64,000 nt of DNA. Origin: Escherichia coli (lineage in GTDB: Bacteria > Pseudomonadota > Gammaproteobacteria > Enterobacterales > Enterobacteriaceae). Both the position numbers and the translations under genes were made by a program. Positions within the stretch are counted from its first letter, which is position 1. The number at the start of each line of letters is the position of its first letter. A model generated the notes under the pieces. That model made no database searches and was not told where the DNA came from. It was given only the letters and a program-made list of their open reading frames with translations. Positions 2 through 545 of this stretch are shown piece by piece. The DNA lies in assembly GCF_003334765.1 (NCBI RefSeq), contig NZ_QOWT01000010.1; one strand, given 5' to 3'.

Positions 2-118
2 ATTCTGGTTTATACCGTCAATAAACCCCAGCGCGCAGCAGAGTTGCTGCGCTGGGGTGTGGATTGCATCTGTACCGATGCGATTGACGTGATTGGTCCG
101 AACTTTACGGCCCAATAG
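2..118 (+). CDS. ugpQ: Glycerophosphodiester phosphodiesterase, 3' end only (truncated by window edge)
   Basis: Frame-2 translation from the window edge gives ...[33 protein letters not shown] then stop at 116-118; matches the recalled UgpQ C-terminus and the expected neighbour of yhhA/ggt. Confidence 0.7.
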
Positions 119-545
119 TTTTCAACGGAATGTCAGGCTGCGGCGTGCTGGGCTGATTCAGCATGTCGCCGTTTCTCCTCTCCGGCAGCATATGCTGCTG
201 ATTCAACGAACTATCCGGATTACGGTTGCTGTTTAACATCCCGCCGTTGGTGTTGGGCAGCATTTGCTGCCGGGCGGGATTTCGCTCCCCCGGCTGTGAC
301 TGCAACACCCGCTGAGAATTATTGTTTATCTGGTTTTCTAAATGCTGCTGTTGCAACTGAGTTTGCGTTTTCAGTTGCTGATTCAGCATCCCTTTTTGCT
401 GGATTTGCTGAGTCTGCATCTGGGTTTGCATCCGCTGCTGGCTGGGTATCTGATACCCCGGCTGGTTAGGGTTGTTCAGAGTATTAATGGGCTGTGCAAA
501 GCCGACAAACGGCAGGAGTGCCGTAAGAATCAGAAGTCGTTTCAT
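105..545 (-). CDS. yhhA: Secreted Gln/Asn-rich low-complexity protein YhhA (DUF2756-like)
   Basis: 146-aa ORF with an N-terminal signal peptide ([17 protein letters not shown]) followed by a Q/N-rich repetitive region; position next to ggt. Confidence 0.85.

Follow-up and report, generated by a model that had tools for sequence, protein, structure and literature searches.

YhhA, a probable exported protein of Escherichia coli, and the convergence of its gene on the ugpBAECQ operon

SilE and PcoE are periplasmic metal-binding disordered proteins, and gamma-glutamyltranspeptidase (GGT), the product of the gene ggt that lies beside yhhA in Escherichia coli, is also periplasmic. Overlapping transcripts of neighbouring genes, termed excludons, were first described in Listeria, and a catalogue of those in E. 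coli has been compiled with ExcludonFinder, in which yhhA-ugpQ is one of the 165 convergent excludons found in at least 50% of 58 MG1655 RNA-seq samples (PMC12288877). The expression of yhhA has also been documented: in O157:H7 it increases together with rpoS on the transition to stationary phase (PMC2241611), it is induced by acid (PMC2270276, PMC7824302) and, about 5.6-fold, by a LolCDE inhibitor (PMC5105897), and it is increased across multiple stresses, where it clusters with rpoS (PMC9501238). On the basis of this expression literature yhhA is part of the general-stress (sigma-S) and envelope-stress responses, and the literature already records the gene and the family to which it belongs, as well as its induction by stress and the overlap of its transcript with that of ugpQ.

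Here yhhA was analysed in a window of 64,000 nucleotides, one strand of E. coli contig NZ_QOWT01000010.1 (assembly GCF_003334765.1), and all positions given below and in Table 1 are those of this whole stretch of DNA. In the reading that we favour, with a probability of roughly three in four, YhhA is a Sec-exported periplasmic stress protein that acts by binding, and yhhA and ugpBAECQ form an excludon-type convergence with embedded terminators. After removal of the signal peptide the mature protein would consist of an invariant Pro/Asn segment, a Gln helix and a disordered tail carrying ML motifs, and the N-terminal segment and the polar helix would dock on an envelope partner or self-associate, this binding taking place during stationary-phase or envelope stress; that YhhA is an enzyme is unlikely. 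At the level of the DNA, yhhA converges without a gap on the Pho-regulated ugpBAECQ operon. The terminator hairpin of each would lie inside the coding sequence of the other, the yhhA and ugp mRNAs would be complementary over some 160 nt of 3' sequence, as structure prediction and published RNA-seq together suggest, and the arrangement would also constrain synonymous sites in the yhhA tail.

Table 1. Features of yhhA and its surroundings, with positions in the 64,000-nucleotide window.
Feature	Position	Strand	Basis
ugpQ 3' end, partial at the window edge	1..118	+	translation, annotation
Predicted intrinsic terminator of yhhA, stem 58..25 followed by UUUAUU, inside ugpQ codons	19..58	-	fold energy
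Coding sequence of yhhA for 146 aa, with stop codon, DUF2756 / PRK10350	105..545	-	ORF list, RefSeq, Pfam, NCBIfam, dN/dS
yhhA/ugpQ coding sequence overlap, 14 bp	105..118	.	annotation and translation
Predicted disordered tail, aa 87-146, with four of the five [GQHD]ML[NP] motifs and the conserved end IPLKTIGP	108..287	-	AF2, alignments
Predicted terminator of the ugp operon, core stem 140-169, tail CGUUUCUCCU, inside yhhA codons	135..181	+	terminator scan
17-nt inverted repeat with palindromic arms encoding QQMLP and QQHMLP	182..273	.	94% complementary
Gln-rich predicted alpha-helix, aa 34-82	300..446	-	AF2, per-position conservation, dN
Near-invariant Pro/Asn-rich segment at the N-terminus of mature YhhA, aa 18-37	435..494	-	length variants, dN = 0
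Signal peptide, aa 1-17, predicted cleavage between A17 and Q18	495..545	-	sequence inspection and hydropathy scan
yhhA/ggt spacer, 119 bp, shared with divergent ggt	546..664	.	sigma-S SELEX peak
Shine-Dalgarno GAGGAGG, 7 nt upstream of the yhhA ATG	553..559	-	read from sequence
Candidate extended -10 TGGTATATA for yhhA	616-624	-	found by eye

The name given to this gene in RefSeq is yhhA, encoding a 'DUF2756 family protein'. Its product matches Pfam PF10956 over the entire model (E=1.1e-60, positions 1-105 of 105) and scores 265 bits with NCBIfam NF007675 (PRK10350, 'YhhA'; cut-off 136, positions 1-145 of 145). The translated open reading frame is also the protein quoted in the initial annotation, whose identification of YhhA from the letters alone is correct. 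Neither Pfam nor NCBIfam nor the PDB sequences yielded a match besides DUF2756, the best hit of a sequence-profile search of the PDB (E=0.1) not being meaningful, and Rfam returned a chance match to isrG alone (E=0.77). The window is chromosomal DNA of E. coli. Its yhhA is 100% identical to that of K-12 MG1655, its bases 1-700 agree at 100% with strain 300709, and a match of some kind to these 700 bases exists in 5425 of the 5426 complete E. coli genomes. The gene order at the locus is livGF, ugpBAECQ (+), yhhA (-) and ggt (+). DUF2756 is a narrow family, of which a set of 1.84 billion representative proteins contains just 65 clusters at 50% identity, and homologues were found in 119 species in a scan of one genome per species. 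Among the best 80 of these 119 species records, 79 are from named Enterobacteriaceae genera or from metagenome bins of Enterobacteriaceae, and in the sequences searched yhhA is limited to the Enterobacteriaceae and close relatives. The one remaining record of the 80 carries the label Chryseobacterium, which is probably wrong.

That yhhA is a real, translated protein-coding gene is established by its pattern of substitution, by in-frame indels, by mass spectrometry and by its Shine-Dalgarno sequence. In comparison with E. whittamii, dN/dS is about 0.06 (0.024/0.418), and the corresponding values for Citrobacter are 0.097 and 2.3. Rare length variants within E. coli range from 96 to 165 aa, all of them differing through in-frame indels near its middle, and YhhA has been quantified by mass spectrometry in ESBL E. 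coli, where it increased under sub-MIC beta-lactam (PMC9927464), and in the proteome of Salmonella Infantis (PMC4265081), and it is within the plotted top-15 proteins of STEC surface extracts (PMC9731836). The initial annotation had depended on the frame being translated, and these lines of evidence bear it out. Phase-variation-like length polymorphism was considered and rejected, as the gene is exactly 441 bp in 59 of the 60 complete genomes that were sampled across the species for allele frequencies, and the variant alleles are found on 2-7 contigs each.

Purifying selection is unevenly distributed along the gene. In the comparison with E. whittamii the Gln-rich block (aa 38-86) has the lowest dN in yhhA (0.008, with dS about 1.5), while in the N-terminal segment (aa 18-37) dN is zero even in comparison with Buttiauxella, where dS is saturated. 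By these estimates selection is strongest in the Gln-rich part that had been described as low-complexity. In the C-terminal tail dN is higher and dS is unusually low, with values of 0.1-0.2 in the last 31 codons against 0.4-1.5 in the remainder of the gene, as would be expected from a second constraint that acts at the nucleotide level.

The region of low dS is where yhhA meets ugpQ. In the window ugpQ stops at position 118 (+) and yhhA at 105 (-), the proteins ending in ...TAQ* and ...IGP* on their respective strands, and exactly the 14 bp that had initially been reported are common to both. A convergent overlap of the coding sequences means that the two transcripts must overlap as well, and the antisense overlap that had been proposed from the sequence is correct and already part of the published core MG1655 excludome (PMC12288877). 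The arrangement is not peculiar to E. coli. Within the best 80 of the 119 species, ugpQ lies tail-to-tail with yhhA in 79 loci, and the coding sequences overlap in 69 of these 79, by 4-23 nt, the other 10 having a gap; the commonest overlap is 4 nt (31 loci), followed by 14 nt (14 loci), 17 nt (10) and 20 nt (8), and the last six loci have 7, 9, 11 or 23 nt. Distant homologues of 93-117 aa are convergent with a GDPD (ugpQ-type) gene at gaps of 1, 35 and 132 nt, such that linkage to ugpQ is kept in every homologue examined, including the most distant.

Where there is no intergenic space, any terminator of yhhA or ugpQ must sit inside the partner gene, and a terminator-like hairpin was predicted in each. 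In the yhhA sense, the hairpin within ugpQ (-25 kcal/mol, z = -4.6) is located 47-86 nt past the yhhA stop. Read in the ugpQ sense it is followed by GUGUGG, and hence the hairpin at 25-58 is not a ugpQ terminator. Its stem is 84% paired across 76 loci with a few compensatory changes (e.g., CCCCAACGC/GCGTTGGGG), and there are 37 G-U pairs in its core in the yhhA sense versus 13 in the ugpQ sense. Only about half of the species have the U-tract, and the stem is absent where UgpQ residues differ at those positions. The stem may in part be a by-product of the conserved PQR...RWG codons of ugpQ, because it persists in Buttiauxella, where yhhA and ugpQ are separated by a gap of 78-96 nt. The hairpin assigned to the ugp operon lies 22 nt past the ugpQ stop and is more stable in the ugpQ sense (-22.1 kcal/mol) than in the yhhA sense (-17 kcal/mol), owing to three G-U pairs that can form in the ugpQ sense alone; its tail, CGUUUCUCCU, is a poor U-tract. 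A hairpin is found at this position in Escherichia, the Citrobacter freundii group, Kosakonia and others, with arms that differ in some. Together the predicted hairpins imply an RNA overlap from about position 20 to 180 of the window, which would amount to about 160 nt of complementary 3' RNA. In Term-seq data (PMC7815308, PMC12207403) no 3' end was found at either predicted hairpin, one of the two resources having no entry, and the only yhhA 3' end recorded is internal to the open reading frame, near codon 21. The initial annotation had allowed that internal termination might keep the transcripts from overlapping, and this was not borne out by the hairpin predictions, in which terminator-like structures were found only past each stop codon, within the partner gene.

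These properties raise the possibility that antisense control is the main selected role of the yhhA unit and that the protein is secondary. Transcription of yhhA driven by sigma-S would proceed into the ugp operon at its 3' end, or vice versa, such that the two units are expressed in a mutually exclusive manner. This would account for a linkage to ugpQ that is kept even in homologues that lack either the ggt linkage or the tail, for the loss of intergenic space in most species, for the place of the pair in the published excludome and for the constrained synonymous sites in the overlap zone. It does not account for very strong purifying selection at the protein level that peaks far from the overlap, in aa 38-86 and the N-terminal segment, nor for a protein that is abundant enough to be seen in proteomes. 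Antisense control is compatible with the exported binding protein that we favour and does not replace it, and as the principal role of the locus we consider it unlikely.

The favoured reading, that of a periplasmic protein acting by binding, depends on export and on the nature of the mature protein. The N-terminus of YhhA is built like a Sec type I signal peptide, with MKR followed by a 13-residue hydrophobic core and a G-F-A/Q-P junction, which was assigned by inspection rather than by a trained predictor. YhhA contains no Cys and hence no lipobox, and both the A-Q-P junction and the anatomy of the signal peptide are conserved in homologues of differing sequence. Judged from these features, export and cleavage are well supported, in agreement with the signal peptide that was recognized at the outset, and the predicted mature protein is about 129 aa in length.

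An AF2 model built from a 43-sequence alignment predicts one continuous helix of 49 residues (aa 34-82) with pLDDT values of 74-92. The helix makes no tertiary contacts (pTM 0.27), and pLDDT is below 60 in the N-terminal segment, with low confidence over aa 18-33, and below 50 for aa 87-146. Disorder prediction had initially been suggested as a check, and in this model the tail is predicted to be disordered and the Gln-rich block helical. The N-terminal segment is near-invariant among the E. coli length variants; by itself it is probably unstructured, as judged from the model, and its conservation makes it a probable docking motif. In the conserved core of the family the signal peptide precedes NPNQPGY.NPSQQRMQ.QM..QQ.QQ...L.Q....QQQ.LQ.Q....QRV.QSQPG. 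Conservation of Gln exceeds 90% at YhhA positions 37, 40, 46, 47, 49, 50, 56, 61, 66, 67 and 72. The conserved hydrophobic residues are those at 39, 43, 53, 54, 58, 64, 69, 73 and 80, and R38 and M43 are invariant. The tail evolves faster and is absent from distant homologues, which end soon after SQPG. The conserved hydrophobic residues of the helix have a spacing of 4, 5, 5, 1, 4, 6, 5, 4 and 7, and no heptad (a/d) periodicity was found in it. An amphipathic helix or coiled coil was rejected, as the hydrophobic moments at 100 and 102.9 degrees do not exceed those of shuffled sequences (z -1.6 to +2.0).

The composition of YhhA is as unusual as had been claimed. It contains 29 Q and 18 N in 146 aa, such that Q+N is 32%, compared to a mean of 9.1 +/- 3.9% over the 76 open reading frames of at least 100 aa in the window, among which YhhA is the top outlier, and the Q+N excess of the mature protein has a binomial P of about 1e-17. 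YhhA lacks Trp and has a single Tyr, and its mature part is basic overall. The description of the protein as mostly a low-complexity repeat did not hold up, since TRF found no tandem arrays in the DNA at a minimum score of 30, Gln is conserved position by position and the block is a helix in the AF2 prediction. What survives of the short repeats that had been noted is MQTQ, present twice, and five dispersed [G/Q/H/D]-M-L-[N/P] motifs (GMLN, QMLP, GMLN, HMLP and DMLN, the first GMLN lying inside the helix and the other four in the tail), and these form no tandem array; no homopolymeric run exceeds three residues. At the DNA level, the palindromic arms of the inverted repeat at 182..273 are GCAGCATATGCTGC and GGCAGCAAATGCTGCC.

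The Met content of YhhA (5.5% versus a background of 2.6%) suggests another function, that of a periplasmic sponge for Cu(I) or Ag(I), or of a repairable oxidant scavenger, in the manner of SilE and PcoE. YhhA resembles these proteins in that it is small, periplasmic, Met-containing and disordered with a helical propensity; seven Met residues of the mature protein (M39, M43, M53, M95, M103, M119 and M128) are conserved among close genera, the helix carries an MxxxM arrangement, HML occurs once (in QQHMLP), and the disordered tail could become folded when it binds. It differs from SilE and PcoE in having no homology to them, its sole matches being to DUF2756, and in its His content, which is limited to two residues with no repeated MxxH/HxxM pattern. 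In addition, the genes adjoining yhhA are not metal or metal-resistance genes, and the literature on its expression yielded no evidence of regulation by metals or oxidants. A Met-based sponge or scavenger is therefore, on this evidence, quite unlikely.

A more elaborate version of the binding protein has also to be considered, in which the Gln helix would serve as a periplasmic 'polar zipper' that, under sigma-S or envelope stress, self-assembles or condenses on a partner held by the N-terminal motif, the tail would have arisen by extension of the open reading frame through the ugp terminator, leaving a dual-coded region, and the pairing with ugpQ would be a conserved switch of the excludon type that sets sigma-S against Pho. 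YhhA reaches 32% Q+N when the composition criterion for prion-like domains is applied, although the Q-rich block is a predicted conserved helix. We regard this combined proposal as very doubtful; if it were true, the polar zipper would represent a prion-like or Q-rich assembly domain outside of the cytoplasm.

Similarly low odds attach to the proposal of a partnership between YhhA and the neighbouring GGT, in which YhhA would, for instance, modulate GGT or act as its chaperone. Divergent ggt is found upstream of yhhA in 78 of the best 80 species loci, with a short spacer common to both genes that holds a genomic-SELEX peak of the sigma-S holoenzyme (PMC5493296), and the two products share a periplasmic location; a scan of this spacer found no sigma-70 promoter. 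Against a dedicated partnership, ggt is far more widespread than the 65 clusters of DUF2756, at least one distant locus (L083) has yhhA-ugpQ without an adjacent ggt, and no interaction data were found.

A quite different function was proposed in a preprint, namely that YhhA is a type III secretion effector of EPEC/EHEC whose clusters of S/T-Q and Q-S/T mimic the substrates of host ATM-family kinases. Such an effector would be expected to occur in pathogens with a type III secretion system and to lack a Sec signal. YhhA does not fit this expectation, as it has a classical Sec signal peptide and is matched in all but one of the complete E. coli genomes, including K-12 with an identical sequence. 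Moreover, the gene keeps its housekeeping context in 79 of 80 species of Enterobacteriaceae, the majority of which do not belong to the attaching/effacing pathogens, the allele of EPEC E2348/69 is merely that of a core gene (97.5% identity), and S/TQ and QS/T dipeptides are to be expected from a Gln content of 20% alone, all of which make an effector role highly improbable. Finally, the idea that the open reading frame is an annotation artefact of a CAG/CTG-rich region in which RNA or terminator sequence rather than protein is conserved can draw on the richness in palindromes, on an mRNA that is more structured than shuffled controls (z = -3.3 for the whole yhhA mRNA) and on long mirror open reading frames on the opposite strand, and it is effectively refuted by the dN/dS of about 0.06, the in-frame indels, the mass spectrometry, the Shine-Dalgarno sequence, the signal peptide and the curated HMMs.

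The favoured reading of YhhA as an exported stress protein that acts by binding, encoded opposite to the end of the ugp operon, leaves current understanding unchanged. What is added here is descriptive, and comprises the domain map, the conservation of Gln at individual positions, the embedded predicted terminators and the constraint on synonymous sites of the tail. Among the E. coli 'y-genes', yhhA belongs to those that are universal, under strong purifying selection, expressed and induced by stress, and for experiments on its protein the map distinguishes an invariant motif at the N-terminus, a Gln helix that is conserved and a tail that is disposable. With no intergenic space in most Enterobacteriaceae, yhhA and ugpQ provide an example of dual constraint, and the pair is a candidate excludon joining the general stress response to phosphodiester scavenging.

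In comparison with known systems, YhhA is the type protein of DUF2756 (PF10956) / PRK10350 and a full-length, high-scoring member of this family, from which it shows no difference. It resembles PsiF, Spy, YahO, ZraP, YmgD and HdeB, which are small, Sec-exported, stress-induced and largely helical or disordered, and which were detected or changed alongside YhhA in envelope and whole-cell proteomes, but it has no sequence relationship to any of them and its composition is unique in their company. With the Q/N-rich 'polar zipper' or prion-like domains and the Q-rich coiled coils it has in common a Q+N content of 32-36% and a Gln segment that is predicted to be helical, and it is distinguished from them by its predicted periplasmic location, by conservation at individual positions and by the lack of a heptad periodicity. 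As in other convergent excludons, yhhA and ugpQ are converging genes with overlapping transcripts, and the pair is explicitly catalogued as such; unlike those excludons, it is the coding sequences themselves that overlap, and each predicted terminator lies inside the open reading frame of the partner.

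The synonymous rate of yhhA falls at its 3' end, where the last 31 codons (window 108-200, - strand) have a dS of 0.1-0.2 compared with 0.4-1.5 in the remainder of the gene. dN is higher in these codons, despite the low synonymous rate there. The low dS in the tail suggests that its nucleotide sequence is itself constrained, by the embedded hairpin that is the predicted ugp operon terminator and by the coding overlap with ugpQ.

The length of the gene is for the most part stable, as yhhA is 441 bp in 59 of the 60 complete genomes sampled, and length variants are uncommon, each being found in 2-7 contigs. 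The E. coli alleles of unusual length (proteins P0001-P0035 and P0092) encode 96 to 165 residues, and in these rare alleles the change in length is due to in-frame duplications or deletions that are confined to residues 38-115. The length variants probably arose when short direct repeats rich in CAG/CTG slipped against each other; one such repeat is the exact 13-mer GCTGATTCAGCAT, present at window 152-164 and 377-389.

The motifs QQHMLP and QQMLP are encoded by palindromic sequences (see table below), since CAG is the reverse complement of CTG and CAT that of ATG, and the two copies can pair mutually as an inverted repeat (182-198 with 257-273, 17 nt, 94% complementary). The full yhhA mRNA is more structured than its shuffles (z = -3.3). 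The Leu-rich antisense ORFs opposite yhhA are the mirror of its Gln codons, CAG being the complement of CTG, and neither of the two in the ORF list (77 and 57 aa) shows any sign of gene status.

Features in and around yhhA, with window positions unless stated otherwise
Feature	Position	Strand	Remarks
Perfect palindrome GCAGCATATGCTGC	185-198		codes for QQHMLP
7-bp inverted repeat, 2-nt centre, GGCAGCAAATGCTGCC	256-271		codes for QQMLP
ORF-internal 3' end (Term-seq)	~484	-	yhhA codon 21, directly past signal-peptide coding region
Leu-rich antisense ORF, 77 aa	342-575	+	opposite yhhA; ORF list
Leu-rich antisense ORF, 57 aa	296-469	+	opposite yhhA; ORF list
Candidate extended -10-like motif TGGTATATA	616-624	-	for yhhA
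Putative short hairpin GGGGCAACCCC	635-645		within 119-bp divergent ggt/yhhA promoter region
yrhB, yrhD, yrhA and 392-aa gene (tssD)	~2445-5900 (8445-10848 in locus L001)		downstream of ggt; annotation
Sigma-28 (FliA) SELEX peak	K-12/W3110 ~3585866		in ugpQ, before the first window base

The 392-aa gene is annotated as an 'Hcp1 family type VI secretion system effector'; it is a lone Hcp-like gene with an extension and, in this stretch, stands apart from any T6SS cluster. A ggt-yhhA-ugpQ locus typical of Enterobacteriaceae is also found in a record labelled 'Chryseobacterium sp. 18061' (CACSKA010000004.1), which is probably mislabelled or contaminated.

Two published data sets have entries at this locus. 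Genomic SELEX placed a binding peak of the sigma-28 (FliA) holoenzyme within ugpQ, between yhhA and ugpC (PMC5493296). Term-seq identified a Rho-independent, ORF-internal 3' end in yhhA at K-12 coordinate 3586994(+) (PMC7815308, supplementary files 1 and 3). Upstream of this 3' end lie two small hairpins, ACGGCA/UGCCGU and GGCU/AGCC; the 47-nt fold there has a z of -2.8, and the site could be one of premature termination or processing.
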